The position numbers and the translations under genes were made by a program. 64,000 nt of DNA. It comes from a virus. Lineage: Duplodnaviria; Caudoviricetes. Where the stretch lies: positions 32,001 to 96,000 of the IMG/VR virus record IMGVR_UViG_3300021400_000262. One strand, 5' to 3'. This document shows, in pieces, positions 1,535 to 37,604 of the stretch (positions within the stretch are counted from its first letter, which is position 1; each line of letters begins with the position of its first letter). Under the pieces are notes generated by a model that did no database searches, was not told the DNA's origin, and saw only the letters and a program-made list of their open reading frames with translations.

Positions 1535-1564
1535 GCGGGTTTTGTCTGGTTATAGATAAAGGGT

Positions 1565-1944: not shown

Positions 1945-2124
1945 TTAAATTCTTTCACTCTTCAGAATCTCTGCGCAGCAGTTCATCAGCGTGCAGTTTA
2001 CAGACAGTCTGTCGGTCTCCCAGTCTTCCACGATCTCATCAGTGTCAAGATAGTGAATGGTTACTCTGACCTTGTAGTTTTCCATCTTGTCATTGCAGGT
2101 AGCTTTCTTGAAGAAGTTGAACAT
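1945..2124 (-). CDS. small hypothetical protein, 59 aa (MFNFFKKATCNDKMENY...)
   Basis: translated by hand; AAGGAG site; behind the promoter at 2177-2205. Confidence 0.6.
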   Translation of the reverse strand: MFNFFKKATCNDKMENYKVRVTIHYLDTDEIVEDWETDRLSVNCTLMNCCAEILKSERI

Positions 2125-2556
2125 TGTTTTTATCTCCTTTTCTCTTGGTCTGTATCTCTCTCTTGCTTACATCCATAGTATAGCACCTGCCCGGTTATTT
2201 GTCAAGCGTTTTTGCAAAAAATTTTTTATTTTTTTTAGGATTATTTTCTCTTAATCGGTGCATTATCATTTTGCACGAAAGTTTTTGCATCCTTGCAGTT
2301 ACGCAAATACGGCTCGTCGCGCTAGACAACGAGCCGCTGTTTAGGGGGTGCGCCAGTAGGCCTTCACGAGAGACCCAAAGAAAGGCGACAATAGAGGGGC
2401 GGTGTATTTTGGGAAAAAAATTTTTTCGACTGAGCAAAATGGTTTTGCCTGGCTAATTCTCCTACCAAGTATTTTTACATTTTCGAAGAACAAACCTCTC
2501 CTTTTCCCGTCATGCAAAAAATTCTAATTTCAGGAAAAATCAAAAAAGGAGTCTCT

Positions 2557-2838
2557 TTAATCCATTACCAAATCATAAAAATAATGCCACACAAAACCAC
2601 TTGAATCAATGTAAGTTCCTAAATAATTATCTATATTTACTCCACCTACTGGCCATCCAGTTCCAATACAATGAATTTCCCAATGACAATTTTTTATTTT
2701 TCCCAAATTATCATCGACCACAGCCCATAATACTGGCCATCCTCTTTGCTCTTTAATATCTAAAAATTTAATAATAGGATTAGTAATAAAAGTTGTATTT
2801 CCTTCTACTCCAAGAGGGTACTTATAAATAACAGCCAT
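2557..2838 (-). CDS. hypothetical phage protein, 93 aa
   Basis: ORF coupled (TAATG overlap) to the upstream SLOG gene. Confidence 0.75.
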   Translation of the reverse strand: MAVIYKYPLGVEGNTTFITNPIIKFLDIKEQRGWPVLWAVVDDNLGKIKNCHWEIHCIGTGWPVGGVNIDNYLGTYIDSSGFVWHYFYDLVMD

Positions 2839-3260
2839 TAAACTCTATAAACCTCCAATAACTTCCCTTTTTCTTTAGCATAATTCATAGTATAATAGGT
2901 GCCGCCGCCTGGTTCTCCGTCCCAGACAGCAAGAACACCTTCAGATCTATCAACAACAATTTCATCTCGAACTAAGTAGCAATTATAATAATATTTTCCA
3001 CTCAACCAAACCAAAAGAGAGCAAGAATCAACAAGCTCTTGTTCAACAGTTGTTAATTTTTTTCTATAAGGATAAACACAAATATAATTTATTCCCAAAT
3101 CTTTAGCGGCCTGGGCGGCAATTTGATCCACTCCCTGTGCCATACCCGTGATAACCTCACTGGGTCTAATTTCTTTAAACTTCTTAATAAACCATTCATA
3201 AATTTCTTGCTCATGACCGACGATCCTCCCAGGTCTGTGCCCTGTTACAGCTAATCTCAA
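2838..3260 (-). CDS. YspA-like SLOG family protein
   Basis: motifs AVTGHRP, TGMAQGVDQIAA, RDEIVVD, AVWDG-GGT-YT typical of YspA/SLOG; TTG start. Confidence 0.8.
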   Translation of the reverse strand: MRLAVTGHRPGRIVGHEQEIYEWFIKKFKEIRPSEVITGMAQGVDQIAAQAAKDLGINYICVYPYRKKLTTVEQELVDSCSLLVWLSGKYYYNCYLVRDEIVVDRSEGVLAVWDGEPGGGTYYTMNYAKEKGKLLEVYRV

Positions 3261-3525
3261 AATTTAACACTTCCTTTATTTTCTGAATATCTGGATTAAA
3301 ACATTTTTTAAAATTTGGGCGCGGAATACTTTTCAAGCATCCAGCGGAACCATCCTTGTTATAATAGAAGTTGCGGCAATACAAACAACCAAAATTATCA
3401 GTAATTAATTGTAAAAGAGTTGCGGCCGGGCCTCTCTAAGATTTCTTAAGTTTGGATGACATCATTGTCCAGGCGCCGCAAGCAACTCCTAGCCAATAAG
3501 CAAATATAAATTCTAAAAAAGACAT
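3211..3525 (-). CDS. hypothetical protein with N-terminal hydrophobic segment (one internal TAG)
   Basis: ATG 3525 with AGAGGA site; open to TGA if TAG is Gln; overlaps the next gene by 50 bp. Confidence 0.4.
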
Positions 3526-3595
3526 AATCTTCCTCTTTTATTTTTTTCTTTATATAATAATTATAATAAAAAATTTTTAAAAAATCAATAAAAAT

Positions 3596-3624
3596 TTGAC
3601 TTTTTTTTGAAAAAATGGTACATA
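3596..3624 (+). promoter_or_regulatory. putative sigmaA-type promoter at the strand switch
   Basis: TTGACT-17 nt-TACATA with extended TG; a divergent TTGATT..TATAAT lies at about 3560-3588. Confidence 0.5.
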
Positions 3625-5923: not shown

Positions 5924-7660
5924 ATGGCATTAAAAGATTTACTTGACCTCTCTAAACAAAGAAAAAAGATTGGTGTTTCTGAAGAGCGTATTCATCAAAT
6001 AATTCCAGAAGCAAGAAAGTATATTGCCTTTTGGAGAGAATATCCAGATTTATTTGTCGATTTTCTTCTTAAAATGGGGAACCCGCAAGATTTTAAATTC
6101 TATTTTTATTAGAGAGTGTTTTTGCGGGTGGCGATGCGACACCAGTACGTATACGCGGTATTCCCCCGTGCATATTCTAAGTCTTTTCTTTCTATGATGA
6201 TCCTGATGATTCGTTGTATTTTATATCCTAGATGCAAATTATTTGTTACTTCTGGAGGAAAAGAATAGGCTGCTGGAATTATGAAAGAAAAAGTTTAGGA
6301 AATATGTAATCTTATTCCAGCTTTTGAAAAAGAAATTAACTGGGGACGAGGAGTAACTCTTGAAGGTAAAGATTATGCGAAATATGTCTTTAAAGGTGGA
6401 TCTTATTTCGATAATATTGCGGCCAGGGAGAGCTCCCGTGGTAAGCGCCGACATGCGGGTGTAATCGAGGAGTGCGTAGGTGTCGATGGATAGATCTTAA
6501 ATGAAGTTATTGTGCCTACAATGAATATTTCTCGTATGTGTATGGATGGTACTTCTCATCCAGAAGAATAGTTAAATAAATCTCAGTTATTTATTACTAC
6601 CGCTGGATATAAAAATACTTATGCATATGATAAATTAATACAGTTTTTAGTTTGGCAAATTGTCCGACCAGAAAAAGCTATGATTATGGGTGGTACTTAT
6701 AGAGTACCTGTTTTAGTAAAACTTCTTGATAAAAATTTCGTACAAGACCTCCGCATGGATGGTACATTTAATGAATCTTCTTTTTAGCGTGAATATGAAT
6801 CTAAATGGTCTGGTACTGTTGAAGATGCTTTCTTTAATTCTGAATCCTTTGATAGAAACCGAATATTAAAACAACCTGAATATGAAGCTTCTGGTAGAAT
6901 AAGTAAAAATAGCTTTTATATTCTTTCAATGGATGTGGGTCGAAAAGGATGCGACTCAGTTGTATGCGTCTTTAAGGTGACGCCGCAAGCACAAGGCGTT
7001 TCTTTAAAATAGCTAATTAATATTTATACTTTTAGTGACGATCATTTTGAAGATTAGTGTATAAAAGTTAAAAAACTTTTTTATAAATATAAAGCAAAAA
7101 GACTCGTGGTTGATGCTAACGGTCTTGGTATTGGTTTTCTTGATTATCTTGTAAAATCTTAGATTGATCCAGATACCAATGAAATATATCCAGATTTTGG
7201 TGTTTATAATGATGAAGAAGATTATTATAAAAAATATCGAACTTAGAATTGCGAACAAGATGCAATTTATTAGATTAAAGCTAATGCTCCAATAAATAAT
7301 GAAGCTCATGCTAATGCTCAAACTTAGCTTTCTTCTGGAAAAGTAAAATTTTTACAAGATGAGCGTGTTGCAAAAACTAAATTATTAGGTACTGTAAAAG
7401 GTAATAATATGACTCCAGAAGAAAGGGCAGAATATTTAAAACCATTTACTTTAACTTCCATATTAAAAGAGGAAATGATGAACCTTCGTGAGGAAAATGA
7501 AGGTGTTAATATCATTTTGAAGTAGGCTAATAAAGGTATTAGAAAAGATAAATTTTCTGCTTTTGAATATGGTCTATATTATATAAAACAAGAAGAAGAT
7601 AATAAGAAAAAGAAAAAGCGTTTTAATGCTAAGGATTGGAAGTTCTTTAGTAGCATATAA
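5924..7660 (+). CDS. terL: terminase large subunit, 578 aa, TAG-recoded
   Basis: FYFY(TAG=Q)R adenine-binding motif, Walker A-like PRAYSKS, Walker B GVIEE, ITTAG, nuclease motifs SMDVGR and KDKFSA. Confidence 0.9.
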
Positions 7661-7681
7661 AGATGAAAGGAGGTTGACCTT

Positions 7682-8038
7682 ATGGATGCAAGCAGAGGCG
7701 AAATGAAGATACATGAAATTCTAGAATAGTCTGGATTGAAGTATGTAATGGAATATAGTATCGAAGGATTAAATAGCTCCAATGGAAAACCTCTTCGTTT
7801 TGATTTTGCTATTTTTGACGATGATGGGAATTTAGATTTTTTAATAGAATATCAAGGAAAACAACATTATGAACCTAGTGCAAAATTTGGTGGAAAAAGA
7901 GGATTTTATTAGCAGCAATATAATGATAATAAAAAACGTAGATTTTGTGCTTTAAATGATGTTAAATTAATAGAAATTCCATATACAGAAGAAAATCTTA
8001 TTACTTATGATTATATAATGCATAAAGCAGGATATTAA
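7682..8038 (+). CDS. Vsr/DUF559-like PD-(D/E)XK endonuclease, 118 aa, TAG-recoded
   Basis: SRGE..I, LRFDFAI, LIEYQGKQHY, DNKKRRFC, LIEIPY pattern; AAGGAGG site. Confidence 0.75.
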
Positions 8039-8057: not shown

Positions 8058-9728
8058 GTGAAAAATAGATAGGAAAAAATTCGCTCCAAAGGATTTAATA
8101 TCACTAATACTAGATAGAGTAATGAAGGGCCATTAGATTATAATTCTATTAAAATAGGCATGAAAACTTTAGAAGATGCTGTTTTAAATTTAGGCTCTTT
8201 ACGCAAGATTGGTAACAGAGGGTATGGAGATAAAGTAAAAGTTTTACAAGCCATTAACGATCATAACCTTCCTTTGTTAAGAAGCATTTCTGAATTTTTC
8301 TATAATACAAGTGGTATTTATTCTCGTACTTGTGATTATGCAGCATATTTATATCGGTATGATTGGTATGTTGTTCCAGAAATTTTTGATAAAGAAAGTA
8401 AAACAGAAAAGATTGTTAAAGAATTTAGTGACATATTAACATATCTAGATAATTCTCATGTAAAAAAATTATGTGGAGATATAGCTTTAGATGTTATAAA
8501 ATATGGAGCTTATTATGGATATATTATTCCATCTTCTTCTGGACTAGTTCTGCAATAGTTGCCAATTAACTATTGCCGATCAAGATTTAGTATTGGAGAT
8601 ATACCAGTAGTAGAGTTCAATATGGCCTTCTTTGATGAGTGTTTTAGGGATGTTAATTATCGTATGAAAATACTTAAAATGTTCCCTGATGAGTTTAAAA
8701 AAGGTTATATACTTTACAAACAAAATAAATTAACCCCAGAATATATCGGAGATGATTATTATTGGGGCGGAAGAATTAATCGAGAGCATGATTTTTTAAG
8801 TTGTCGTGCGGGCGGGTGGTACCCGCTTGAACCAGGCAATACGGTGAAATTTTGCTTCAAGAATGGTGACTAGCCACTTTTCATTAATGCGATTCCTAAT
8901 ATCATAGACCTTGACGCAGGTCAAGACCTGGATCGCCGCAAACAAATGCAAGATTTAATGAAAATTGTTATTCAAAAATTACCGCTTGATAAAAATGGGG
9001 ATTTAATTTTTGATGTAGATGAAGCAAGAGATATTCATAATAATGCTGTTGAAATGTTACAACATGCTATTGGAGTTGATGTTTTAACAACATTCGCTGA
9101 TGTAGATATCAAAGATGTTGCAGATAAAAATTCTACAACATCAGATGATGATCTTGAAAGAATGGAAAGAACTGTTTATAATAGTTTTGGTGTTTCAAGG
9201 AACTTATTTAATACAGATGGTAATTTATCTTTGGAAAAATCTATTCTTGATGATGAATCTACATTAAAAACATTATTATTATAGTTTGGGACTTTTTTTG
9301 ATAAGGTTACTAAAGCTTTAAGTAAGAATAAAAAGAAATATAATTTTAGACTTTATATGTTGGAAACAACTTAGTATAATTATAAAGAGTTATCTAAAAT
9401 GTATAAAGAACAAGAGCAAATGGGTAAATCAAAAATGTTAGCACAAGTTGCTCTTGGACATTCACAAAGTGCGATTATACATACCGCATATTTTGAAAAT
9501 GAAATTCTTCATTTAAGTGAGTTAATGATTCCTCCTTTAATGAGTTCTACTTTAAATGCTGATGCAATTTTGGGTAAAAAAGATTAGAATAATGATTCAA
9601 AAACTCAAAATTCTTCAGAAGGAAATGTTAAAACTTAGAAGCTTTCTTCTGGTGAAGTTGGTAGACCTCAAAAAGAAGAAGGACAGAAAAGTGAAAAAAC
9701 AATCGCTAATCAAGAATCTATGAGTTAA
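8058..9728 (+). CDS. portal protein, 556 aa, TAG-recoded
   Basis: four same-frame track ORFs joined at TAG; GTG start after AGGAGG; size, position after terL and a C-terminal GRP tail. Confidence 0.8.
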
Positions 9729-21121: not shown

Positions 21122-24100
21122 ATGGCTAAACAACTTAATATTGATCTTAGTTTTAATGCGGATACTTCTAAAGCTAAAGCTTAGATAGCAGATTTGCAAA
21201 AAAGCTTAGATCAATTAATATCATCAACTATTAAAAATAATAATTAGCTTGGCATTGATAAAGAAATTAAACAAGCTATTGATGATGCAACCAAATTAAA
21301 AGTTGCTCTTCAAGCAGCTACTGATGCTGATACAGGAAAATTAAATTTAGCTAAATTTTCTGAAAGTTTAAAAAATAGTTAGATGTCTCTTTAGGCATAT
21401 GCATAGCACTTAAAGGCTCTTGGACCAGAAGGAGAATAGAGCTTTTTAAAATTATCTAAAGCTATTGTTTCTGCTGAGACGCCTATGAGATAGACAAACA
21501 CATTATTAAATAATATGTTTGTTACTTTAAAAAATACTGCTAAATGGCAAATTTCTTCTAGTATTTTACATGGATTATAGGCAGGATTATCAGGGGCTTT
21601 TTCTTATGCTAAAGAATTAGATACCTCTTTAAATAATATTAGAATTGTTACGGGATATGGTGTAGATGAAATGGCAAGATTTGCTGAATAGGCAAATAAA
21701 GCGGCTTAGGCATTAAGTACAACTACAACATCATATACCGATGCTGCATTAATTTATTATCAATAGGGTTTAAGTGATGAAGAAGTGCTTGGCAGAACAG
21801 AAACAACTATTAAATTAGCAAATGTTTCTCGTCAAAGTGCTGAAGAAGTTTCAGATCAATTAACTTCTATTTGGAATAACTTTTATGATGGAAGTAAAAG
21901 TCTAGAATATTATGCAGATGTAATTACTGCATTAGGTGCGGCGACCGCATCAAGTTCAGAAGAAATTTCTACTGGTCTTGAAAAATTTGCAGCTGTATCT
22001 AAAACTGTTGGTTTATCATATGAGTATGCAACTGCGGCCTTGGCTACAATTACAGCAACGACTCGTCAAAGTGCTGATACTGTTGGTACAGGTTTAAGAA
22101 CATTATTCACTCGTTTAGAAGGTTTAAAACTTGGTGAAACACTTGAAGATGGCGTTGATTTAAATAAATATTCTGCGGCATTATCAGCTGTAGGAGTATA
22201 GATTTTGGATACATCTGGTGAATTGCGTAATATGGATGATATCCTTGAAGATCTTGGCGAAAAATGGCAACAATTAGGTCGAGATCAAAAAATGGCATTG
22301 GCATAGACTGTTGGTGGTGTACGTCAATATACCAATTTAATTGCATTAATGGATAATTGGGACTTTATGCAAGAAAACTTAATTACTGCAAGAGGTTCTG
22401 AAGGTACATTACAACAATAGGCTGATATTTATGCTCAATCATGGGAAGCTGCTTAGAAGCGAGTGCGCGCAGCAGCACAATAGGTTTATAAAGATTTAAT
22501 TGATGAAAAATTTTTTATTAGATTAAGTGATTTTTTAACTGGTGCTATAAATGGAGTTGATAATTTTATAAATGCCATTGGTGGTATTCCTGGGGCAATA
22601 GCTGGGGTTGGAGTTGTTTTAACGACAGTTTTTGGAAAGCAATTATCAGAGTCTGTTAATTCTGCAATGTATGAATTTTCTAGATTTACTGGTAAAGCAG
22701 AAGATGTTGCTAATAAGACTCGTTTATAGGCAATGGATGCTGTAAATAGTTATTATGATACAACTGGAGCTTCTGGTGGAACGAATGATTCAGTAGCAAG
22801 TGCTTTATTAAGACAAGAAATAAATGATAATTATGAATTATAGAAAATTACTTCTTAGCTGACAGAAGAACAAAGGGCTTTTGCATAGGCAATATTAGAT
22901 TCAGCCGAAGCTTATGATAAATTAGCTATAGAGGCTGAAAAGACTTAGAAAGAAGCATCAAATGATTTAGGCGTTGCAAGAGGACAGTTGAGAGGTTCTT
23001 TAGGTGCTTCTGTTTCTGTATCTGGAGAAAGTGCAGCTTAGATTTCTAAAAATGGTTAGGTAATGTTAACTGATTTAGAAGAGACTTTAGCAGACTAGTT
23101 TAATGAAATGACTAATGGAGCTTATAAATTTTATACTAGTAGTTTAAAAGAAGCTGATGATGCTGCTAAAGAATTAGTTGTTGCTAAAAATGAATTAATA
23201 AATATTACTAATAAAGAGAATGTTTCTGAAGAAGAAATTAAATAGAAAAGAGAAGAAGTTGCTTAGAAAACACAAATTTTAACAGATAAAACAAAAGTTC
23301 TATAGTAGGCTAAAGATGGTTTGAAAGAAAGCGAATTAACATTATCTGGTTCTTCACAAGAGTTAATTGCTTATTTAAAAGATTAGGGATTAATGACAGA
23401 TGAAAATAAAGATAAAGTTTTAGCTTTTATTAAAGCCTTAGAAGGTTCAGAATCATCAACAGAAGAATTTATTCGTAAAACAAAAGTTGCATTTGAAAAT
23501 TAGAATAGCATTCCTGATGAATTAGAAAAAATAAGAACAGGATTTCAAAATATTGGAACGGGAGCTGTAGGAAGTTTAAAAAGTATTTCTCAATTAGCTA
23601 TGGGATTTACTTCTCTCAAAGGGGCAATGGATGCTCTTAATAATACAGATTTAACATTTTTTGAGAAATTTTCTAGAGTTTCAATGGGATTATCTATTGG
23701 AATTTCGTAGCTTGCAGCTGGATTTCCAACTTTAGTAAAAGGTTTGACAGGAATCGGCATTGGAATTATGAAATTAATTCCTGCCGCAAATGGAGCTGGC
23801 GCAGCATTATCAGCAGCTTTCGGTACTGCAGTAGGACCTATTGCAATTGCAGCTGAAGCAATAATCGCTGTTGGTCTTGCTATATGGGGGTTAAAAGCTG
23901 CTTGGGAAAACTTTACTCCAGAAGGCAAATTAGCTGTTGCTGAAAAAGAAGCTAAAAATGCTAAAGATGCTTATGATAAAGCAAAAGCTGCTCTTGATAG
24001 TTTTAAATCTGGATATGATAATTGGTCTTCTTTATATGAAAAAACTTAGAAATTAAAAAAAGGAACAGATGAATATACAAATTCTATTTTAGAAGCAAAT

Positions 24101-27100
24101 AAGGCTGCGCAAGATTTAATTGATAAATATGATTTAATAGCTGGTACAGATTATGAACTTGATGAAAATGGAGTAATACGTTTTAAATCTTCAGCTGAAA
24201 ATAAATAGAGAAAAGAAACTAATGAAACTTTTATTGAAAAAGCTAATAAAGATATTAATGAAAGAAATGAAAAAATTCATTTTAGAAGTGGTGAAATTGC
24301 TCAAAACTATGCTACTAGAACAGATTATGCTATTTATAATGGAAATGATATCGAAAATTTTGCTAGATAGTTGTCTTCTGGTTCTTTGACTGAAAGAGAT
24401 ATTTTATCATAGATAGCAACTTATGGTTTGGATAGAGAATCTTCTAATAATTTAATTAGTTCAATAAGAGATCTTGCTATAGAAATTTCTAATACAGAAA
24501 AAGCAAATAAAATTGATTTTTAGCAAGCTAGAATTGCTGATGCTAGAATTTCACTAGGAGAAAATTATTCTGCTGGAATGGAACCTTTATTAAATAAATT
24601 TTTAAAGGATTCTCCTCGTGGAGGCCGTGGTGGAAGTATAGATGGCGAAGAAATATACGGTGATGCTCATCATATTGCAAAAATATATAATGATACATTA
24701 AATTCTATTAATTCAAATGATATTGATGATTCTACTAAAAAACAATTAGCATATGCTTTAGCTGAAGCTTAGTTAAGTGGAAGTGAAAGAGTAGATCTTT
24801 CTGGAATTGATACTTCTAATTGGACAGAGACTTTTATAAAAAAGACCTTTGGAGAAAATGCTGAAAAAATTCAAGCTGCTGTTGATAGAAAAGCTAAAGA
24901 AATTGATACTTCAGTTTTTGAAAATAAAATTGCGGATGTCCATAAAATTTTAAATAAATTAAAAGATGACGCTGTTCTAGAACCTAAAGATTTCGAAGCT
25001 TTAAATTAGGCAAGTGATCTTACATCAGATTATTTTATAGAAATGGCTGATGGGACTCATAAATTAATTGGCGATGCTAAAGAGTTTTATAATCTCGTTC
25101 ATGGAGAACAAGTAGATAATATAAAAAAAGAAATTTCTCGATTAAGTGAAGAATCAAAAGAAATAAAAGATAGAAGAAATCTTTTAGTTGATGAAGAAAC
25201 TGGAGAAACTAGATATTTAGGTAGTGAAAAAGGAGAAAATCTTTTATTTAGTAATGCTTGGGGTAGTGCTAATGCGTATAGTTTAGAGACATATAATCCG
25301 ACTGTATTAGAGGATTAGTTAAATTTATTAAAATCTTTTGATGATTTTGACTAGAGTAAAATTACCGAATGGGAAAAAGATGGTCTTTACAATAGAGATG
25401 AAATGCAAGCAGTCGCAGATGCTTTAAGTTAGTATCGAGAACAAATTGTCTCTAGTAACGAAAAGACAAAAGAAATTGATTAGTCTATAGAAAAATTAAG
25501 TAATACAGCATTATTTGAATCAAAAACTTTTAATGAATTAGATAATAATTTAGCTGATCTTGCATAGAGAACTTCTGGTAATATAGAATTAACAAAAGGT
25601 TATTAGGTTGCTTTTGATAATATTATAAAAACAGAATTATCTTCTATTGGAGTTTCAGAAGATGTTTTTGATTAGCATGTTAAAACCATAAAAAGAAATG
25701 CTGATGCAATAAAAGATGATGAAAATGCTGTTAAAAGATTGGCTTTGGCTAATTTAAGAGTCTAGTAGGGAATTAAATCTTTAGGATAGAATATTAATAC
25801 TTATACAGAAAATTTAGTAGATAGTAAAAAAGATACTTTAGAATATGCTGAATCTATGAATGGTGTAAAAGATACAATGTCATAGATTCTTGGTATTTCT
25901 AAAGAAGACATATCTAATGATTTTATTTTAAAGAATTTAGAAGATATAAAACTTGCAGCAGAAGATGATGAAGAAGCATTAGAACGATTAAGAGAAAAAG
26001 CAAATAGAGAAGTTGTTGCTAAAATTAAAATAGAAGATGAAGATTTAAAATCTTAGCTTGATTTAATTTTAAATGATTTAGAAGCAGAAGATTTACGAGA
26101 TATTGAACTTGGAATGTCAATTAATGAAAATGAAGTTTTAACAAATTATGTAAATCTATTAAATAGAATGTCTGAAGAAGCTGCTGGTGCAGGAGAAGAT
26201 ATTTCTAGTGCATTACAAGATGCAATGGATAGCATTAACTTTGATCCAGAAATTGATTATGATACCATTTCGGTTGGAGATGAAGATTTAACTGAATCTG
26301 CAACAGATGGATATGTAGAAATTCCAAGTATACATACTTCAGCAGATGGAACAATAGAATCTACAACAACAAGAATACCTCTTTCAACTTATTAGCAAGC
26401 TCAGGCAAATGGATTAACAGAAATAAGAGTTCCAAGAATTAATGGAAAGAAAACAGTATCTAAAGGCGGAGTAAATTCTAATGCTAGCACAAGCAATAAA
26501 AGTGGTAAAGGTGGCGGCGGAGGCGGAAGTGCGCCAAAACCAGCTAAAAAGCAAAAAACTACTGATCCTAATACTGGTATAAAAGATATTGATCGCTATA
26601 TCAAAATAAATTAGCAATTAGATGAAAAAGAACATGAAAATACTATGGCTGACGCTAGATTAAAAGCTACTAGCGGAAGAAGTGCCATTAAAATAATGGA
26701 AGAATAGCTCGGTATTTTAAAACAGCAAAAAGTTTTATATGATGAATTAGCAAAAGAAGCTAAACAATATCGAGAAGATGATTTAAAAAAATTACAAAGT
26801 GATTTCGCTGATTTAAATTTTGAAATAGATCCAAATCAAGAAGGTATGCTTTTAAACTATGAAGCTTTATTAAAAGCTGAAACTGAGGCTTATAATAAAG
26901 TTTAGGAAGAGTGGAATAAAAAAATTATTGAAGCTGAAAAAGCATACAATGATGAATTTGTCCGATTAGGTACGGCTGCTACAGAGGAAGCTTTAAAACC
27001 TTGGAAAGATGCTTTAGATAAAGTTAAAGAAGAATCTGAAGAACCATTAGAAAAAGCTGCACAACGTTATGAATTATTTAAAAAAGATACTGACAAATAT

Positions 27101-29743
27101 AATGATTCTGTTGAGCAAGAAAGAAAAGCCAATGAAGAAGCAATACAAAAAGCAAATGAAAAATATTCAAAAGAACTTGAAATAATTGCTAAAGGTGTAG
27201 AATTAAAAATTAAAGTTGATGATGCTGATTTACAATATCTTGAATTTTTATTAGAACAAATTGGAGAAGGCGCAGATCGAGCTTTAGATAGAATGTCTAA
27301 TTTTAGCTGGCAATTAGAAGATAATATGAACAAAATTGATAAATATCAAGAAGGTTTAGATAAAGTTCTTGAACATGCTGGATTAGATTATTAGGATTTA
27401 TTAAATGGTGATATTGATGGTATTGGAACTTTTAATGAAGAAGATTTATCTAAAGTTGAAGAATATCGTGATGGTTTAATTGCTTGCGGAGAGCAGCTTT
27501 TAGAATTACGCAAAACTATTCTTGAAGAAGTTAGTGCTGCCTTTGATGAATTTAATTCTGATTTAGATAGAGCTATTGATAGAGTAGATCATCTAAGAAG
27601 ATTTACTGAAACTTATAAAAATATTCTTGATATAGTTGGTAAGGATGTTGTCGATCCAACAGGAAGAACTACTAATATGCTTGCGCGAACCGCTTTTACG
27701 TAGGCACAAGCAAATGCAAATGCTCTTCAAACCCAGCTCGATATGCAACTTTCTGCGATTGATGATTATAATCGTACTATTGCAAATCTACAATCTGATA
27801 ATAGATATGGTGAACATGATGATACTATTAAAGAATTTAAGAATCAATTAAAAGAAGCTGAAGACGCATATGCGGCGACCCAAGAAGAATGGTTGGGAGC
27901 ATGGGAAGAAACAGTCCAGGCTGCCGCAGATATTTATGAAGCTACAATGTTATAGATTATTGAAGATTTTGGTAAATCTATTTCCGGTTTAGCTGGTTCT
28001 TTAGAAGAATTAGATACTAGATTTAATAGAGCAAAGAGTCTTGCCGATACTTATGTTGATGATTATGAAAAGATTTATCAATTAAGTAAATTAAATCGTG
28101 ATATAAATAATTCTATAGATGATACTGATAATATTCGTAGCAAATAGAGATTAAGAGATTTACAAGAACAAATTAATGATCTTCAAGCCAGTGATAATCA
28201 AATGAGTGAATATGAGATTGAAAACCTTCGTAGAAGATACGAGCTGGAATTAGCATATCTTCAACTTGAAGAAGCCAGAGATGCTAAGAGCCAAGTTCGT
28301 ATGGTCCGTGATAACGAAGGCAACTGGGGATATATTTATACAGCTGATGAAACCGCGGTAGAAGAAGCTGAATAGAATTATGAAGATAAGCTTTATGCTA
28401 TGCAAAAAGCTAATACCGAATATATAGAATCTCTTGAATCAGAAATTCTTCAACTTGAACAAGAGTGGTCTGATGCTTTAGCTGGAATAAGAGTACAAGA
28501 TTATGCCAGCTATGAAGAATACCAAGAAGCCATCGACCGCACAAATGACTATTATACTCAAAAGTTAGACCAAACATATGAGTAGATGGGTATTGCTATT
28601 GACAATAATAAGGTTCTTTATGATGAAGATTGGGCTGCTTATTCTGCTGCTACTGGATATAAGATTTCTGAAGATGAACGTTTTATTGACGATTTTAAAG
28701 AAACAACTTTAAGTCTTACTACTGGATATTAGACCATTGAAGATGCCTAGAATGCTTTTAGAGATGCTACTTTAAATGTTACCAATGATATGGTTTAGGC
28801 TTTTCAAGATTGGGAAAGAGATACTAATACTGCTTTAGAATTAGGCGGAACAGATATTTAGAATTATGCTGAAGATGTGAATGAAGCTATTAATGGTGAT
28901 GGCGGAATTGTTGATCAAACTGAAGATGCTGTCGAAGCTGCTGAAACAATGTCTGATGAGTATTAGGATGCATTTACTGAAATTATTGACTATGCTGGAA
29001 CTTTTTGCTCAGATTTTGATGATATTATTCAAAGAGTTATAGATGATTGTAATGAAGCTGTTGATGCTATTAGAAGATTAGTTGAAGAAATGGATAGAGA
29101 AAATGAGAGAAATAACAATAATAATGAAGATACTTACGCAAATTGGGAAGCCTAGCTTGATGAAGCAGGAAATCTTTCTGGTTGGAAAGCAAAAGATAGA
29201 AATGGTAATTATATAACTGGTTCAGGTAAAAAATTATATTGGGGTGGTAATGAATAGATTTCTGGTTATACTACTACTTATGATTTTGATGCTAATGGAA
29301 ACTTAATTATAGATGGCAAAAATGCTGTTGGTTCTGGTTTTGCTGGTAGCACTCTTTCAGAAGAAGAAAAAAGAAAACTTCTGAAAAAAGCTGCGCATGC
29401 AGATACTGGAATGTATACAGGAAACTGGGGATCTCCAGAAGGAAGGCTTGCTGTGTTGCATGAAAAAGAACTTGTTCTTAATAAAGATGATACCTCTAAT
29501 TTCTTATCTGCTATTGGTATGATTAGAGATATTTCTAGCATGATTGATTTAAATTCAGTAACAAGTTCTAATTTAATGGCTTCTATGTTTGGAATTAAAG
29601 GAGTTTCTACTGGAACAGATACTCTTGAACAAGAAGTCACTATTCATGCAGAATTTCCTAATGTTTAGAATCATTCTGAAATAGAGGAAGCCTTTGATAA
29701 TCTTATTAATAAAGCTTCACAATATGCTAATCGTAAAATTTGA
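21122..29743 (+). CDS. tape measure protein, about 2873 aa, TAG-recoded
   Basis: eight track ORFs in one frame, each ending at TAG; TP901-like TMP core (21.6-22.4 kb), hydrophobic Ala/Gly segments, long coiled coils, C-terminal TGMYTG..LAVLHEKELVLN; ends TGA. Confidence 0.88.
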
Positions 29744-29810: not shown

Positions 29811-29888
29811 TATTGGACAATATTGAGAAAATAATCTAAATTATTTTTGATATATTTATAGATAATGGAGAGAAAGGAGGAACAAGCC

Positions 29889-32800
29889 TTGGGAGATAAA
29901 AGCGAACAATTATTTCAAGGAATAGAAATAATTGCAAAAGGGCTTATATCTGATTTAAAATTTAATAAAACCTCAGTATGTACTATTAAAGATACAAAAG
30001 AAGCTTCGCAAGGTAAATATTATGTTACTGATGGAACAAGTTATTTTTATGCATATTCAGAAAATACTGATTATGTAAAAGAATAGCAAGTATATGTAAT
30101 GATTCCTAATGGCGATTATAATAATTAGAAAATTATTACTGGTAAATATTTAGCGAATGAAAACGAATCATATACTTATTCAGCTCCTTTTAATTCTTTT
30201 GTAGATATAACTGGAAATCTTTATAATAGTGCTATTGATGAAGTCCCAAAGTTAGATTCTTCTTTAATTGCGAATGGGGAAATTAAAGAAATTCTTTTAT
30301 GGGAAAATAAAGATTCATTAAAAGGATATACTACTTTAGGTGTTAAAGCAGATTTTAAATCTTTATTAAAAGAGTTTAATACAGTTGAAGGTACTTATGG
30401 ATTAAGAATCGCTATTCGTTTTATTGATTCTACCAATAGAGCTAATTCACAAGTAAGAGTTATTACTTTTACGAATGAAGATATGTATGGTAATCCGTAT
30501 AATTTTGAAACTTATTATACTCAAGAAAAATTATTTACAATAGCCGATAAAGATAAAATTATTGATAGAATTTAGGTATACTTCTTTTAGGATAAAAACT
30601 TTAGAGCTTCAAATGGAGTCAATATTCCTGTAGCTACATTACCGAATCTTTTTATTAAGAATGTTTTTGTTGCTTTAGGATATGATTTAAATGGCTTTGG
30701 AGAAGATTAGGTTTTATTATATAGTTTAAATTCTGATACTTATGATGCATCTTATAGCTCTTTTGAAAATAAGAAAACTATGAATATAAGATGGATTCAT
30801 AAAATAGATGATAATAATTTTGAATGTTATGCTGAAGAAAATGAAGAATTTTCAAATTCTTTAATCATACACTGGTATAAATATAATCTTTCAACTGGCG
30901 TTATAGATCCTCTTGCGGGTAATTTTTGGTAGGAAATACCAGAAGCAAAGAATAAATTTAAATATTCTATTTTTCCGAATACTATAGAAAGTAATGAATA
31001 GTATAAAGTAATTATTGAATCAATTCCTGATAATAATATTGATGATGCAGAGTTAAATAATCTTGAAAATTTAGTTTAGGAAAAATATAGTGTTTTAAAT
31101 GATTATACTGCTAGATATGGGAATTCTAATAACGAGATTGAAATGCAGTTATTAGAAAATGCTCGATAGGAATATGATGCTGCTGTTGAAGATTATGATT
31201 TTTAGAAAGCTTAGTTGTTTGCGGAAACCCAGTATTTTGAAAGTAATGTTTTAACTTTTACTAATGAATCTTTAGTTGCTAATTATGCAAGTATAGATTT
31301 AATTAATGGTCTTTCAATAGAATGTGATTTAAATGGTCAGAAGGGAATTTATAATATATATAATTCTCATAATGAATTAACTAATTCTAGTGAAGGCAAT
31401 AAAATGAGATTAATGACTGCGGTTTATAATTCTATTATAACTGGTCAAGAATCTCTTGATACTGCGGAAAAGATTTCTTGGAGATTCCCTTTAACTAAGA
31501 CAATGATTCAAACTCCAGTCGATGGCAAAGAATATAATACTGCCAATGGAGATGAATACTTTGAGGCTGCGGATGGTAGTTATTGTATTATCACGCGTGA
31601 TGGTACGAAAGCTACTGGGGACATAGGATCGTCTTTCCCGAACGCCGCGAGTCAATATTTTAGAATTAAACCTTATTATGTTGAAGGTGCTACTGATAAT
31701 ATAATTACTTGTTATGTAACCAAGAACAGAACTACTTATACAGCTTCAACTTCTCTTACCTTTGGAAATCAAGGAAATAGTGGAACAGATTTTACTTTTT
31801 TCCTTTAGTGGGAAGAAGGAAGTAATTGTATTTATGAGAATGATGAAGATCCAATTTAGATTTTTGCTCATTTATACGATGAAGAAAATAATGAAATTGC
31901 TCTACGAAATGTTACTTTTGAATGGGTTAATCCTGATACGAAGTTTAGAGATTTTATTATTAATGAAAGTCCAATTACTTTCTGCAATTCTACTGGAAGC
32001 GAATCTTATTATAGTATAAGTGTTGGAGGTAGTGATAGTTGTTATATTCATTATGATAGCATAAGAGAATATAAAGATGGTTTTTGGAATATATTAAAAG
32101 CGACTGTTAAAACAGGAGAATCTGAACCCGTTACTAGTGATGGTTAGGAGCTTGGAGCGGAAGTTGTTTTAACAGCTTATTTATCAATACCTTTAACTCA
32201 AAGAAGAACTACTTCTTCTGGAACAGTTAATATTTTTTCTTCGGTTGAAGGTTGTAATAAAATAATTTATAATTCTTTAGGTTCTAATCCAGATTATTTT
32301 TCTGGTTAGTATAAAATCTTTTAGGGCGCTAATGAATATGATATTGATACAAATGGATATTCTTGGCGGATTTTAATTAAAGATTTTATGGATACTGCAA
32401 TAGATGTAGATGAGTAGAATCATTTAAAGAATTATTATCCATAGATTAAAAATAATTTTATTGTTCCTCCATCTATGTATTTTGGATTTACTGGAATATG
32501 TAGTGCAATTTGTGCAAATGATTTGGGGGATATTATTTGGGCTTAGCCAATAGTCATATAGCAAGATTAGTATAGTTCAGCTTTATTAAATTCTTGGAAT
32601 GGTAAATATACTGTTGATGAAGAGGCTGGAACTATATTAACAACAATGTTGGGAGCTGGGTCTAAAGATGAAAGAAATAGATTTTCTGGAGTTCTTCTTG
32701 GTGATATAGATGATTCTGATAAAGGAGTCTTCGGTTATCATGAAGGTGCTCAATCTTTTGGATTTAGAACCAATGGTAAAGCTTTTATTGGTAAAGCTAA

Positions 32801-35192
32801 TAAAGGTCGAATTGAATTCGACGGAAATTCTGGATCAATTAAAAGTATGTCTTATAGCAAAGGCAATACTGGTATGTTAATTGATTTAGATGATGGTGTT
32901 ATTGATATTTTAGGTTGCGAATATGCAAGTGTTGCGACTGTTTATGATAGTAGCATTGTCTATTGGTATTTAAATGAAGATGAAAAATGGCAATAGATAA
33001 ATGAAATTTATAATCTTTCTGTATAGACAGCAGAAGATTTTAATAAAGGTCCTATTTAGTTAGCTACAGAATAGTCTAAGTAGGATTTGGTTTCACATGA
33101 TGAAACAAGTCCTTATTATAATAAATTTTTATATCCAATAGTAGCAGAGTATTATGATTATAATGAAACTTATTGGTATAAAGATGCTGATAATAATTGG
33201 GCTTAGACAAATGTTCCTGGTAATATTGAATTATTGAGTGAAGATGCTTTTTGGGCTGGTGTTATAGGTCTTGCGAGCAATGGATTAGGAATATCTGTTT
33301 TAACAGATGAAAGCAGTCCTTATTATAATAAATTTTATACATTCTCTGATACGCTTCCTACTGGAGCTGATTTAAACGAATGCTTTTATTTAGATAATAA
33401 TGAAGCTTTTGTTAATCCTAATACTATTCTTGTCTTGGAGGTGCGGACGGCCGCAGACTTCGCATTAGGGCCAGTTGAATTAGCAAGACAACAAAGAAAA
33501 ACAGATAGAATTTTAGCTGATAGTAATAGAGCTGGTTATAATAAATTCTTTTCTGGATAGACAGTAAACGATTCAGATAATAATACAACTTATACAAAAA
33601 CAGATAGTCGAGTAACTATTTAGGCATTATCACCATATATTAAAGTTAATGAGTCTGGAAAAGATGTTTTTTAGATTGCTAAGGACGTGTCTTTTATTTA
33701 GACTAATGATTATAGTTCTAGCGAATTAACAGGAGCTAGAATTACTTTAAAAGGCGCTGATGATACAGTTAATAGTTCGATCAAGCCTTCTTTTGATATA
33801 AAAGCATATAGTGCTACTGGTGGAGTAAAAATGAGTTCCATTTCTCCTTTTTTAGTAGCTCAAGCAAGAGATAATAGTCACGATATAAATGGAGTTAGAG
33901 ATTTAGAAAATTATCCTTATAAAACATTATTAAGTGTTGGCGATAATAGTTATTATTTACAATCTTTTAATTATGAAACTCCAACTTCTAATGCTGAAGA
34001 TGGTACTGAAAACACTACCAATGGCAAAGGAATGAGAATTGATCTTGCTAATGGAAAAATTTTAGGATATGATTTTTCCTTGAAGGCACAAGAAAATTCT
34101 GGAGATTATAATGGTTCTTATGTGGCTATTAATAGCAATGGTAATTCTTATTTAAGAGTACATTTAAAAACAGTTTCTAGTGCTCCAGAATATGAACTTG
34201 TTACTTTTCCTAGTGCAGTAACATCAACTGCTATGGGAGAAGAAGATGGAACTGGATATGTAGCTAATACTTATTATTATTATGATGAAAATACTAATAG
34301 TTATTAGTTAGCTACTGAAGGTTGGAATCCTAATATAACATATTATTAGTTAACAACAATACCCACTCAATTAAGAGATGTTGATTTAATTAATATAGGA
34401 AAAAATAAATTTTTATTACAATCTTAGAACTGGGTTTCTGGTCATTCTGGTACTTAGATTAATTTATCAAGAGGTAAAATAACTTCTTATAACTTTAATT
34501 TAAGAGCAGTTGGAACTGGAGGAACAATTTTTATTAATAGTACCAATCCTACTTATCCTTTTAGAATTGAAGGTAATACAGAACAAAGTATTCAAAATAA
34601 TATTACTTCAACTGTTGTTACTAATGTTGGTAAAAGTTATTTTAGGATAAAATGGAACGGAGATTTTATAGCTGGAAATAATACTAATAATTTGGAATAT
34701 TCCGGTGGACGTTTTACTTTAAAAGGTGGCGTTATTTCTGGTGGTTCTATTAATATTGGAAATGGATTTTTTAAGGCTAATGATGAAGAAGTAAAATTGG
34801 GTGATTGGCATGTTGATAGTTCTAATGGAGCAGATGCTTTTTATTATGGAGATTGGGATGATTCTACTATTGGAATGGCAAATCCTTCTTCTTCTAATCA
34901 TCCATATTATTTATGGGCTGGATGGGGAGACGATTATAAACTACCTAATGGTGCTCATGCAATGTTAGCTACCAATAGAGATGGAACAGAAATTGCTAAT
35001 TTAACTTTATATGGACCTACAAGTTTACATGAAGGTGGAACTCATTATTCCGGATCAACTTTAGGTTCAGCTTTAGATAATTTATATGATAGCATTGATA
35101 ACTATGATACCTGGTTAGCACGAGGAGAATGGCATAGAGAAATTATAGACCATGAAGAAATTTGTCATGCCAGAGGCCCAGAGAATGATTAA
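29889..35192 (+). CDS. large tail-tip protein (1767 aa unspliced), TAG-recoded, intron in its 3' end
   Basis: TTG start after AAAGGAGG; six track ORFs in one frame; first gene after the tape measure; beta-rich GxxIDL-type segments in the C-terminal half. Confidence 0.75.
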
Positions 35193-35438
35193 AATCAGGA
35201 TTAAATGGTGCTAGTAAAATTCCTTAAACTGCGGGGACACCCTTAGAGCTTTTACAACCAAACAAGTACAGGGATGTGCTTGCGGCGATGGAGTAACGGC
35301 CTCGGTATGGTAAAATCGTAAAAGATTGGGCAATCAAACGCATCGAAATCTCTAGAACAGAGAGACGTTCAACGACTATAATAGGAACTCGAAAGAGATG
35401 GTATAGTCTAATCGCTTACGAAATGTAAGAGTGAAATG
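35096..35438 (+). ncRNA. group I self-splicing intron without homing endonuclease (alternative 3' end at 35618)
   Basis: P element AAACTGCGGGGA (35226), R GTTCAACGACTA (35367-35378), S GATGGTATAGTCT (35397-35409); P3 TTCCT/AGGAA, P4 TGCG/CGCA, P7 GACTA/TAGTC, P8 CTC-GAAA-GAG, P9 CTTAC/GTAAG; P1 TAGCAT (35090-95) with GTGCTA (35208-13) ending in U.G. Confidence 0.88.
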
Positions 35439-35616
35439 CAGAAATTAGTAGGCTGCTTTTAATGAAGGAGCTGAAGCTGGTTTTGTAGCTGCTTAGAGAG
35501 AGACACCCTGTGATCCAGATTGTTATTGCAACTATGAATTTTGTGCAGATGATTGCGATACATGTAATAATGGAAATTGTGGGTGCAATAGTGGACAATG
35601 TGAACCAGATGATTAA
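35439..35616 (+). CDS. alternative 3' exon A: 58-aa Cys-rich C-terminus (9 Cys)
   Basis: RNQQAAFNEGAEAGFVAAQRETPCDPDCYCNYEFCADDCDTCNNGNCGCNSGQCEPDD*; in frame after a 35095/35439 junction. Confidence 0.65.
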
Positions 35617-35618
35617 TG

Positions 35619-35886
35619 CTGTAATTCTGATGAAAGTTATACAAGTGGTTCAAATTCTTTAAAAGGACGACTTTATTCTGATGGATATTCAGATGGATAT
35701 GAAGCTTGGGATCCACCATTATATTGTCATCATTGTAATAACAATAAAATATGTGATGAATTTTGTGGGTGTGATATTGTAAATTGCGATTGTAATGATA
35801 ATAGTCCTTGTTCTTGTAATAGATCTTATTGTGGAGATGATTGCGATGATACTCCTTGTTTTAGTTATGGACCTGGTGGAGTGTAA
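35619..35886 (+). CDS. alternative 3' exon B: 88-aa Cys-rich C-terminus (13 Cys)
   Basis: CNSDESY...LYSDGYSDGYEAWDPPLYCHHCNNNKICDEFCGCDIVNCDCNDNSPCSCNRSYCGDDCDDTPCFSYGPGGV*; no usable in-frame start; in frame after a 35095/35619 junction; 10-bp P10 pairing. Confidence 0.65.
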
Positions 35887-35891
35887 AAACA

Positions 35892-37187
35892 ATGATTTAT
35901 ATTATTAATAAAGGTAATAAAAAAATATTTAATATTTTAAAATTACAAAAATATGATTCTTATAAAAGATATATTTTTTCTCCTTATATAATTAAAATAT
36001 GGAAAGAAAACAATTTACTTTTGAGAAATCTCTTAACACAAGAAAGTATTATGTTAAAAAATAGTAATGAAGAAGATGAAAAATTCTTAATTACTCATTG
36101 GTTTAAAATAGAACAAGAATCAAATCCATATGATCTTTTTTAGAAAATTAAAAAAGAAGGAAATGAATCACATAAAAATATAAATAATTACAATTTATTA
36201 ACTGATTTTGATAAAGCTATAATTTATACTACTTTAGATTGTAATGCTAATTGTTATTATTGTTATGAGAAACATTAGTGCTTTTAGCGTAAAAATATGA
36301 CTAAAGAAGTTGCTGATAAATTAATAAATTTAATTATATAGAATAAACCTAAAAAATTTTTTTTCAGTTGGTTTGGTGGAGAGCCTTTATTTAATTATTA
36401 GATTATAGATTATATTATTGATAAGATAAAAGAAAATAATATTGACTATGTTTCATCTATGATTTCTAATGCTATTTTATTTACTCCTGAAATGATAGAA
36501 AGGGCAGTAAAAAAATGGAAATTAAGAAATATTTAGATTACAGTGGATGGGATATATGAAAATTATGAAAAAATAAAAGATGTCCCGAAAGGAAGCTTTG
36601 AAAGACTTGCAAATAATATAGATTTATTAATTTAGAATAAAGTAAAAGTCAGTATAAGATTAAATATTACTCCAGATAATTTACAAGAATTAAAAAAAGC
36701 TATTTTATTTTTTAAAAAATATAAAGGTAATCAATATTTTAGTATTTATACTCATGAAATATTTGATACTCCACTTGATAAATAGAAAAAAATATTTTAT
36801 AATAAAAGAGTATTAAATGAATATATACATTACTATTGTGGACATGACCCAAAGATTATATAGTGGCAAGAAAAATGTTGTATGGCTGATTAGGGTAAAT
36901 GTATCGGTGTTTTACCAGATGGTGAATTAAATATTTGTGAACATTGTATAGACCATGATCACTTTTCAAATTTAGATTAGGATTTTTATGATATAAATGT
37001 TATAAATAAATTTACAGAAATATCTGATAGAAAAGAATGTCAATTATGTCCACTCAGACCGAGTTGTATTTTTTTACATGAATGTGGTGGTAGTAGTGGA
37101 AATCATTGTTCTTAGTATAGAGTAGAAGATAGATTATTAGAACATAAATTAGATTTAATATCTTCTATTGAAAATAAATTAAATTAG
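35892..37187 (+). CDS. radical SAM/SPASM domain protein (peptide/protein maturase-like), TAG-recoded; may run on to 37604
   Basis: CNANCYYC (36240-36263), WFGGEPL, I(TAG=Q)ITVDG, SPASM cysteines CMAD..PDGELNICEH..CQLC..RPSC..C..C. Confidence 0.9.
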
Positions 37188-37208
37188 AGAAAAAGGAGAT
37201 TACATCTT

Positions 37209-37604
37209 ATGATTACAAGAAATTTATATACCAATTTAGATATTTATAACAAAGCAATGGCTCTTGTTGAGGCTTTTAATACAAAGGAAGGTAAAGAATT
37301 AAATTATCCTGTAAAGATTAATTATTATCTTCAGAAGAATATCAAGGCTTTTGTTGATGCTGCTACAGAGATCGAGCAAAAGAGAATTGAGATTGTTCAG
37401 AAGTATGGTAATAAGAAAGAAGATTCTGAAGAATATATCATTCCAGAAGATAAAATGGATGAAGCAGGAAAAGAATTACAAGATTTCTTTGAACTAGAGC
37501 AAGAGATTCCAGTTAGTATGTTAAAGCTAGATTGGTTTGATAATATTGATATGACTGCAGAGCAAGTTTCTGCGATTTCTTTCATGATTGAGGAAGAGGA
37601 GTAA
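37209..37604 (+). CDS. small acidic protein resembling DUF1617-type tail-associated proteins, 131 aa
   Basis: TAG-free, AAGGAG site; family resemblance by eye only. Confidence 0.65.
   Translation: MITRNLYTNLDIYNKAMALVEAFNTKEGKELNYPVKINYYLQKNIKAFVDAATEIEQKRIEIVQKYGNKKEDSEEYIIPEDKMDEAGKELQDFFELEQEIPVSMLKLDWFDNIDMTAEQVSAISFMIEEEE

Follow-up and report, generated by a model that had tools for sequence, protein, structure and literature searches.

Radical S-adenosylmethionine (SAM) enzymes with a SPASM domain are known to install thioether links in small antibiotic-like peptides and, in two cases, in cellular proteins. QhpD puts such links into QhpC, a small enzyme subunit (Nakai et al. 2015, as cited in PMC13692751), while CrpC cross-links CrpA, an archaeal Cys-rich protein (Dieter et al. 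2026, PMC13692751); PMC13692751 gives Cys-Asp/Glu or ranthionine bonds for these two systems and makes no mention of phages. A full-text literature search returned no paper in which a radical SAM enzyme modifies a tail or fibre protein of a phage, nor any that places this chemistry on a virus particle. Here, we describe a candidate for such a system in a 64,000-nucleotide window of the IMG/VR phage record IMGVR_UViG_3300021400_000262 (parent record 110 kb, ~61% complete). The window is the whole stretch of DNA that was analyzed, and all coordinates refer to it; W stands for its phage and L-numbers for comparison loci. Directly behind a large tail gene, the window encodes two Cys-rich cassettes, A and B, followed by a radical SAM/SPASM enzyme. 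The original prediction from this DNA was that the substrate of the enzyme is the Cys-rich, spliced C terminus of the tail protein. Taken as a whole, we consider it likely that an enzyme resembling the maturases of ribosomally synthesized and posttranslationally modified peptides (RiPPs) installs thioether links on a Cys-rich tail-tip end that is delivered by an intron. The features involved, read with TAG as Gln, are as follows.

29847-35192, + strand: tail gene of 1781 residues including an unspliced extension, an open reading frame (ORF) with TAG as Gln
29847..35095, + strand: predicted exon 1 of the tail-tip protein encoded after the tape measure, ending in ...LDNLYDS plus AU of a split Ile codon (phase 2)
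~700-nt gap between tail gene and radical SAM gene, + strand: holds the intron and cassettes A and B
35096..35438, + strand: predicted group I intron, up to 3' splice site A (RF00028, core conservation, P1 covariation)
35207-35213, + strand: internal guide sequence, GGUGCUA
35214-35431, + strand: intron core
35438, + strand: omega-G
35439..35616, + strand: candidate alternative 3' exon A, 58 residues after the split Ile, TAA at 35614-16, in frame with the 5' splice site in 6/6 loci
35619..35886, + strand: candidate alternative 3' exon B, 88 residues after the split Ile, TAA at 35884-86, in frame with the 5' splice site in 6/6 loci
35892-37604 (ATG to TAA), + strand: radical SAM gene, 570 residues, ORF with TAG as Gln
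35892..37184, + strand: enzyme proper, 431 residues with 12 internal TAG codons (PF04055, NCBIfam, invariant Cys, fold matches)
~35958-36191, + strand: N-terminal domain resembling a RiPP recognition element (RRE), by superposition of the model on the CteB N-domain
36240-36263, + strand: CX3CX2C motif
36879-37109, + strand: seven-Cys SPASM region, by motif
37185..37208, + strand: junction comprising an in-frame TAG, AGA AAA AGG AGA, 9 nt, and ATG, compared in seven loci
37209..37604, + strand: acidic, TAG-free protein or domain of 131 residues, fused in frame to the enzyme

The radical SAM/SPASM enzyme and its proposed chemistry

The enzyme matches the Pfam family Radical_SAM (PF04055) with 66.1 bits against a cut-off of 29.5, and its CX3CX2C motif (C117-x3-C121-x2-C124) is invariant in 14 full-length homologues. 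Equally invariant in these 14 proteins are the cysteines of the SPASM region (C330, G344-x4-C349, C383-x2-C386-x5-C392-x5-C398, and C406), one spacing being x5 where the canonical motif, C..G-x4-C..C-x2-C-x5-C-x3-C..C, has x3. Among solved structures, the best relative by sequence is CteB, a SCIFF thioether synthase (5WGG), with an E value of 1.3e-22 over residues 111-404, followed by lesser matches to SkfB (5e-10) and YydG (3e-4). The top NCBIfam profiles are without exception those of enzymes that mature Cys-containing peptides: Clo7bot TIGR04334, CefB NF038107 (the Cys-every-fifth maturase), PapB NF047865, geopeptide, and CXXX-repeat.

Structural modeling points in the same direction. An AlphaFold model was produced from the 14-sequence alignment, with a pLDDT (predicted local distance difference test) of 80.7, and Foldseek ranks CteB as its closest match, ahead of TigE, anSMEcpe, SuiB, and SkfB. 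In VIA-align, anSMEcpe (Z 21.7), ChlB (21.2), CteB (20.6), and TigE form a tied top group at Z 20-22, the alignments with anSMEcpe and CteB taking in their SPASM domains and reaching residue 428. The N-terminal ~80 residues are aligned by CteB and TigE only, starting at residues 23-30 (model 30-427 onto CteB 1-448), whereas the VIA-align alignment of anSME, which has no RRE, begins at model residue 105. Taken within the full-length model, this N-terminal domain consists of strands (27-56) followed by helices (60-96), and as modeled it resembles the peptide-recognition domain of CteB. Together, sequence and model indicate that the enzyme is a RiPP-type radical SAM/SPASM maturase with three predicted [4Fe-4S] sites. 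Clustering with non-peptide SPASM families and an absence of Cys-rich neighbors, which would have spoken against the original prediction, were both looked for; the enzyme instead groups with RiPP-type thioether synthases and has such neighbors.

As for the product, we have moderate confidence, by analogy, that it consists of Cys-to-carbon thioether cross-links, since the nearest characterized relatives make them, the cores of the cassettes are rich in Cys and Asp, and there are precedents for SPASM enzymes acting on proteins. We regard it as rather unlikely, though worth serious consideration, that the enzyme acts on the tail end without forming thioethers (by epimerization, anSME-type oxidation of Cys or Ser, C-C or C-O cross-linking, or methylation), or that the end binds a metal or Fe-S clusters that the enzyme helps install. 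In favor of this, anSMEcpe and ChlB tie with CteB in the fold comparison, the epimerase EpeE/YydG is among both the sequence and the fold matches, no curated family cut-off is reached, and the dense CxxC/CxC spacing in the cassettes would suit a metal. However, the nearest profiles and the nearest structure by sequence belong to thioether maturases of Cys peptides, CteB being well ahead of SkfB and YydG. The motif recognized in anSME substrates is C/S-x-P/A-x-R, and it was not found in cassettes A and B. Finally, a plain metal-binding tail would have no need of an enzyme of its own whose gain and loss coincide with those of the tail, which is the pattern described below.

The predicted group I intron and the cysteine-rich exons

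The two cassettes stand out by their composition. Cassette A has 9 Cys in 58 residues (16%) and cassette B 13 in 88 (15%), compared with 0.8% Cys in the ORFs of the window overall, and no ORF of at least 300 residues in the phage part of the window exceeds 4 Cys in its last 80 residues, most having 0 or 1. Within the structural genes of the 110-kb record, no further coding segment on the coding strand is Cys-dense; one other Cys-dense segment was flagged on the + strand, in the non-phage-like left part of the window. As originally noted, Cys is found beside Asp and Asn, with CD, CN, CxC, and DDC motifs all present, and the enzyme gene begins 5 nt after the stop of cassette B (TAA 35884-35886, AAACA, ATG 35892). 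The original span of 35439-37187 is not that of the gene alone: its left end is the first base of exon A, and its right end is an in-frame TAG (37185-37187) that had been taken as the end of the enzyme. In exon A, the core is preceded by a conserved part, R-x-x-x-x-x-A-Y/F-x-E-G...G-Y/F, and in exon B by C-E/N-x-D-x-x-Y...LKG-x-x-Y-x-x-G-Y/F, the cores having 9 Cys in A and 12 in B. The cores are composed of 26% Cys and 16% Asp, with Asn also abundant, and Asp is the commonest residue at positions +1 and +4 from Cys. The +4 position corresponds to the CX3D spacing of PapB substrates.

Between the body of the tail gene and the cassettes lies a predicted group I intron. RF00028 is matched over its full model (1-253) with 32.6 bits and an E value of 2.8e-6, which is below the gathering score of 50, and Rfam at gathering thresholds gives no match in the window. 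The comparison of related loci strengthens this prediction. The DNA of the intron core is near-invariant in six loci while the coding flanks have diverged, and the P1 helix covaries. The 5' splice site is placed after U35095, inside an Ile codon (AU|Y), and the exon word and the guide sequence that pair in P1 occur in three compensating states across seven loci: UAGCAU (35090-35095):GUGCUA in W and L002-L004, CGAGCAU:GUGCUCG in L005 and L006, and AGAGCAU:GUGCUCU in L007 and L008. As is typical of group I introns, P1 ends in a U paired to a G, and a G precedes both 3' exons in 6/6 loci. A different P1 helix drawn by Rfam, at 35163-35185, was rejected because it is not conserved, unlike the covarying UAGCAU:GUGCUA.

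At the 3' side, the context (A/U)AUG|Y is found at all cassettes but one, and exon B is preceded by an omega-G (35618) whose AAUG|C context matches that of site A. Both exons fit the frame of the 5' site in all six full loci, although the frame of A relative to B varies among loci; TAA readthrough between A and B was discarded as a general mechanism because of this variation. Likewise, 3' splice sites directly after P9 are excluded by in-frame stops in L004-L006. Stop codons stand immediately upstream of cassette A in 3/5 relatives and of cassette B in one. Exon B is devoid of any ATG, GTG, or TTG of its own and exon A has no conserved start codon, the conservation of both starting exactly at the splice junctions. 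The predicted RNA junctions are ...GAUAGCAU|CAGAAAU for A and ...GAUAGCAU|CUGUAAU for B, which would yield proteins reading ...LDNLYDS-I-RNQQAAFNEG...(Cys-rich A) and ...LDNLYDS-I-CNSDESYTSG...(Cys-rich B). The covariation of P1 and the fit of both exons to one frame thus lend support to the original proposal that the cassettes are joined by splicing. From these sequence comparisons, we conclude with moderate confidence that the intron joins the body of the tail gene to exon A and, most likely as an alternative, to exon B, both exons being used.

Two further observations concern this region. When left unspliced, the tail gene continues for 31 more codons (35096-35192) through the P1 loop to a TAA at 35190-92, without a Cys-rich core. 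In relatives, this extension retains both a His...Cys pattern and acidic residues at its end (…DD*), and it may be a real third C terminus. In addition, a second copy of the 3' element of the intron (GAUGGUAUAGUC..., P7' and P9 hairpin) precedes cassette B at L002:7715-7760 and in L004 at ~7680-7728. The window lacks this copy; there and in L005, nothing of the kind separates cassette B from the cassette A stop codon, which it adjoins directly. The distal 3' splice site is thus presented differently within the clade.

Coupling of the enzyme to cysteine-rich tail ends

Relatives of the module were found by alignment-based searches, which were needed because searching IMG/VR with a single enzyme or tail-end sequence gave zero matches; GenBank phages returned just three weak ones. 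There are ~15 full-length enzyme homologues (47-99% identity), and seven loci, from five of them, were fetched. All seven are TAG-recoded, and their contigs, which come from cattle among other sources, reach 191 kb. In six, the order is tape measure, tail gene, gap, radical SAM gene, and a gene for 1015-1155 residues, L003 being cut upstream of the tail gene, and the gap holds the intron, A, and B in each of the six loci examined. This arrangement persists in relatives whose enzymes are 47-60% identical.

A profile search of IMG/VR added 45 more distant enzyme loci. Among the 18 nearest IMG/VR enzymes, 12-13 directly follow a protein of 285-1313 residues, from stop to start within tens of bases, and these upstream proteins have 5-20 Cys in their last 80 residues, many Asp, Glu, and Gly, and no intron. 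When seven of them were scanned, PF06605 (Prophage_tail, the Tal tail-tip family) was found in five, and tail PHROGs were matched too. L021 and L023 were left unclassified, the automatic choice of genetic code having misassigned TGA as Trp in some GC-rich loci. The 1313-residue protein that precedes the enzyme of L012 is a distant homologue of the tail protein of the window (E 1e-12 over 99 residues, with weaker colinear matches); it is intron-less, and its Cys-rich end is contiguous with the rest of the protein. In the enzyme tree, the window clade (support 99) falls inside a larger clade of 13 enzymes (support 95), all of them tail-linked, the members joining the window clade being L012, L127, L108, L009, L104, L142, and L018. 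A second clade of tail-linked enzymes, whose neighboring tail proteins carry PF06605, has a support of 100, while peptide-linked enzymes are in other clades. The adjacency of enzyme and tail gene is kept in three enzyme clades.

Bacterial genomes hold at least 511 relatives of the enzyme, all in anaerobes of the gut or rumen, including Prevotellaceae, Oscillospiraceae, and Lachnospiraceae. Among the best 80 of these, many adjoin small Cys-containing, precursor-like ORFs, and a few, apparently prophages, stand behind Cys-tailed proteins of 661-1079 residues. It could be imagined that the Cys-rich ends of the phage proteins are likewise true RiPP cores, cut off or translated alone and then released as bacteriocins or signals, the tail protein being a giant leader or just a neighbor. 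This would fit the nearest cellular relatives, which in metagenome-assembled genomes (MAGs) of Prevotellaceae and Clostridia adjoin precursors of ~40-60 residues composed of leader and Cys-rich core, and the membership of several intron-less tail proteins in PF06605, a family named "prophage endopeptidase tail." Nevertheless, we consider it improbable, because the exons have no start codon (B) or no conserved one (A) and are conserved from the splice junctions onward, because the Cys-rich C terminus is contiguous in intron-less relatives of up to 1313 residues, because the gene lists and Pfam matches of the clade loci contain no protease or exporter beside the module, and because the tail-linked enzymes form clades of their own, apart from the peptide-linked ones.

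Other arrangements were also seen. In L013:5550-8408 and L046:5194-7710 (very large viral contigs of 254 kb and 435 kb), the enzyme precedes a protein of 838-952 residues with 13-16 Cys in its last 80, and the enzymes of both loci form their own clade with that of L010. At L020:6587-7003, on a 467-kb contig classed as viral, two ORFs of 73 and 55 residues that share an NMKFF start and have Cys/Asp/Asn-rich ends lie ~1.6 kb downstream of a related enzyme, which is a classical precursor-peptide arrangement. Six Prevotellaceae MAG loci (L094-L098 and L106) contain a tight clade of enzymes beside precursors of ~45 residues with the leader KKFEKPQMEVVKLKPAGMVC and a Cys/Asp-rich core; these precursors may be an uncharacterized RiPP family of rumen Bacteroidota.

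We also approached the association from the side of the tail protein, by searching IMG/VR with the conserved C-terminal domain of Tal and excluding loci that run off their contig, which left 33 complete homologues. The enzyme is encoded immediately downstream of 8/8 Tal homologues with a Cys-rich end and of 0/25 without one. The 25 enzyme-less proteins have the same helix, after which they end in an acidic tail that is rich in Gly and free of Cys. When the Tal tree was computed with the last 110 residues removed, four changes of the joint trait were counted on it, and well-supported branches force at least three such changes; for example, L063, which has both the Cys-rich end and the enzyme, is close to L072 and L073, which have neither. 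The co-occurrence proposed as a check of the original prediction is therefore strict. This shows that the enzyme and the Cys-rich C-terminal ends of tail-tip proteins are tied to each other genetically. Synteny, this 8/8 versus 0/25 distribution, and the enzyme tree all support the substrate that was originally predicted, and the sequence evidence argues strongly that the Cys/Asp/Asn-rich tail end is what the enzyme acts upon. That the enzyme sits there by coincidence and serves some other need (nucleotide or DNA modification, or a viperin-like function), the Cys-rich ends folding alone, is very improbable, for although phages carry radical SAM enzymes for, e.g., DNA hypermodification (PMC8989533) and viperin-like enzymes appear lower in the fold list (Z ~14), the SPASM motif, the CteB-like N-domain, the strict coupling to Cys-rich tail ends over at least three independent changes, and the immediate adjacency kept in three enzyme clades all contradict it.

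Several results weigh against our reading of the locus. First, PF13186 (SPASM) gives no match to the window enzyme at E values up to 1 (the relative L015 scores 21.1 bits, with a cut-off of 21.5), and PF05402 (PqqD/RRE) gives none in Pfam to enzyme residues 1-103; since Pfam finds neither domain in the window enzyme, both assignments rest on motif and model. Second, its NCBIfam scores of 76-80 bits are far from the equivalog cut-offs of 340-600, which places it outside PapB NF047865, SCIFF maturase TIGR03974, Clo7bot TIGR04334, and CefB NF038107 as defined by these cut-offs, and the intron-less relatives score 42-127 bits on the equivalog profiles listed for them (cut-offs 340-600). Structural identity to the relatives is ~16-18%, and it is on such family resemblance that the type of modification is based. 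Third, the P10 pairing amounts to 2-3 bp for exon A and to ~1 bp at most for exon B, which makes the use of exon B the weaker inference. Fourth, the tail protein of the window is only weakly similar to the Tal proteins of PF06605 (hhalign 39% for the tail end against the Tal alignment, BLASTP E 4e-4). We dropped its membership of this family, the hhalign value being too low, and the 1781-residue protein is for this reason labeled a tail-tip protein by its position and a chain of relatives rather than by family membership. Last, the 8 positive Tal loci are contigs already found by the enzyme search, so that the 2x2 table is not blind, it is inflated by kinship, and its new information lies in the 25 negatives; the independent evidence in it comes down to ~3 coupled changes.

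Phage context, proposed mechanism and known systems

The genetic code of the phage is central to the annotation. Under translation table 11, the window contains only short ORF fragments. When TAG is read as sense, stop-to-stop coding on the + strand (at least 600 nt) rises from 18 kb to 55.6 kb, whereas reassigning TGA or TAA brings no comparable gain in the window. When three genes from six related phages were aligned, TAG columns paired with Gln 7.8x above background, followed by Lys and Glu. This coding gain and this enrichment make the assignment of TAG to Gln well supported at the level of sequence. A tRNA search found zero tRNA genes in the window, and in the 110-kb record it found tRNAs for Ala, Trp, and Lys only, with no CUA-anticodon suppressor despite the abundance of TAG in the late genes of the phage; such a suppressor may be encoded in the missing ~39% of the genome or be supplied by the host. 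Relatives derive from rumen and gut anaerobes. Read with TAG as Gln, the window is a phage structural module, whose other landmarks are the following.

5924-7660, + strand: terminase, gene map with TAG as Gln
8058-9728, + strand: portal, gene map with TAG as Gln
21122..29743, + strand: tape measure of 2873 residues (Pfam PF10145 PhageMin_Tail, E 1e-29), order kept in relatives

Downstream of the radical SAM gene are further giant tail genes. At the other end, positions 1-3600 have a G+C content of 0.41, compared with ~0.30, and a reversed GC skew, and long ORFs are missing from their + strand also when TAG is read as Gln. This part looks like a different module, or one with a different strand orientation, than the structural block.

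The recoding also bears on the end of the enzyme, the enzyme proper having no TAA or TGA of its own. The codon after residue 431 is TAG in W, L002, L003, and L006 and AAG (Lys) in L004, L005, and L007. Because AAG leaves no stop between the two parts, fusion to the 131-residue protein is unavoidable in the latter three loci. The 12 nt at the junction, AGAAAAAGGAGA, are identical in 7/7 loci; they read RKRR and at the same time form a Shine-Dalgarno-like AAAGGAG. Since this ribosome-binding site is conserved, the 131-residue protein is probably also translated separately, besides the fusion. Its identity among relatives is 51-98% (at least 74% in all but L005), whereas that of the full-length fusion protein is 47-60%. 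Among PHROGs it matches phrog_1401 (unknown function), and three Atlas clusters, with 743, 80, and 76 members, contain it as a separate viral protein of 131 residues. It is absent from the more distant tail-linked loci. Pfam gave chance-level matches only, and the protein folded alone has a pLDDT of 53.

How might the module work? In the scheme that we propose, the group I intron would join the tail-tip body (to 35095) to either exon A or exon B. In the anaerobic host, the enzyme would then abstract hydrogen from carbons in the side chains of Asp, Asn, or other residues, and these carbons would be joined to neighboring Cys sulfurs in ranthionine or sactionine-type thioethers, as they are by CteB, PapB, QhpD, and CrpC. 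The outcome would be a compact, covalently knotted tip, independent of disulfides or metals in the reducing, protease-rich gut. Because disulfides cannot form in this habitat, the modification would be relevant to how hosts are recognized and how stable the particles are; a role of the modified tip in adsorption or penetration is only weakly indicated. More speculatively, and we would not expect every part of it to hold, one self-splicing intron would attach either Cys-rich end, and the radical SAM enzyme, tethered to the assembling tail via its 131-residue domain, would lock the chosen end by thioethers. If so, the phage would produce mixed virions with exchangeable, enzymatically hardened receptor-binding or penetration tips, combining ribozyme splicing with RiPP chemistry.

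Should the cross-linking itself prove true, it would be a new kind of virion maturation in gut and rumen phages. The system is widespread, extending over three enzyme clades of IMG/VR and occurring also in Clostridia MAGs, as prophages, and it would offer scaffolds shaped by natural evolution, namely large proteins that bear a knotted, RiPP-like module. Moreover, with its two alternative exons behind a group I intron, the module of this clade would join a very small number of candidates for alternative splicing by a ribozyme in bacteria or phages.

How, then, does this locus compare with described systems? Like the ranthipeptide thioether synthases CteB (5WGG/5WHY) and PapB (freyrasin), the window enzyme combines an RRE-like N-domain, a radical SAM barrel, and a SPASM domain with two auxiliary clusters, as far as motif and model indicate, and as in these systems, the presumed substrates are rich in Cys and Asp, with Asp frequent at +4 from Cys. 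It differs from PapB in sequence (76 bits, with a family cut-off of 340), and from both systems in being fused to a 131-residue protein and in its target, which would be the C terminus of a tail protein of ~1800 residues rather than a precursor of 40-60 residues, without leader protease or exporter. TIGR04463, "rSAM_vs_C_rich," is the best NCBIfam profile of the intron-less tail-linked relatives (76-127 bits), but its cut-off of 525 bits is not reached, and the tail-linked enzymes are separate on the tree. In the strict sense, a RiPP comes from a short precursor made up of leader and core and its core is released, whereas here the Cys-rich stretch ends large proteins, of up to ~1800 residues. 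The module would thus work like a RiPP system, but it is not one. Particular to this locus are the Tal-like target behind the tape measure, its TAG-recoded gut and rumen clade, the two intron-delivered Cys-rich ends, and the fusion of the enzyme to the 131-residue protein. The closest functional precedents are QhpD/QhpC and CrpC/CrpA. By sequence, the window enzyme falls outside the QhpD family (39 bits on its profile, cut-off 453), but as in both of these systems, a SPASM enzyme is encoded beside a Cys-rich protein rather than a small peptide. Unlike in either, the target here would be a tail-tip protein of a phage virion, delivered as alternative exons.

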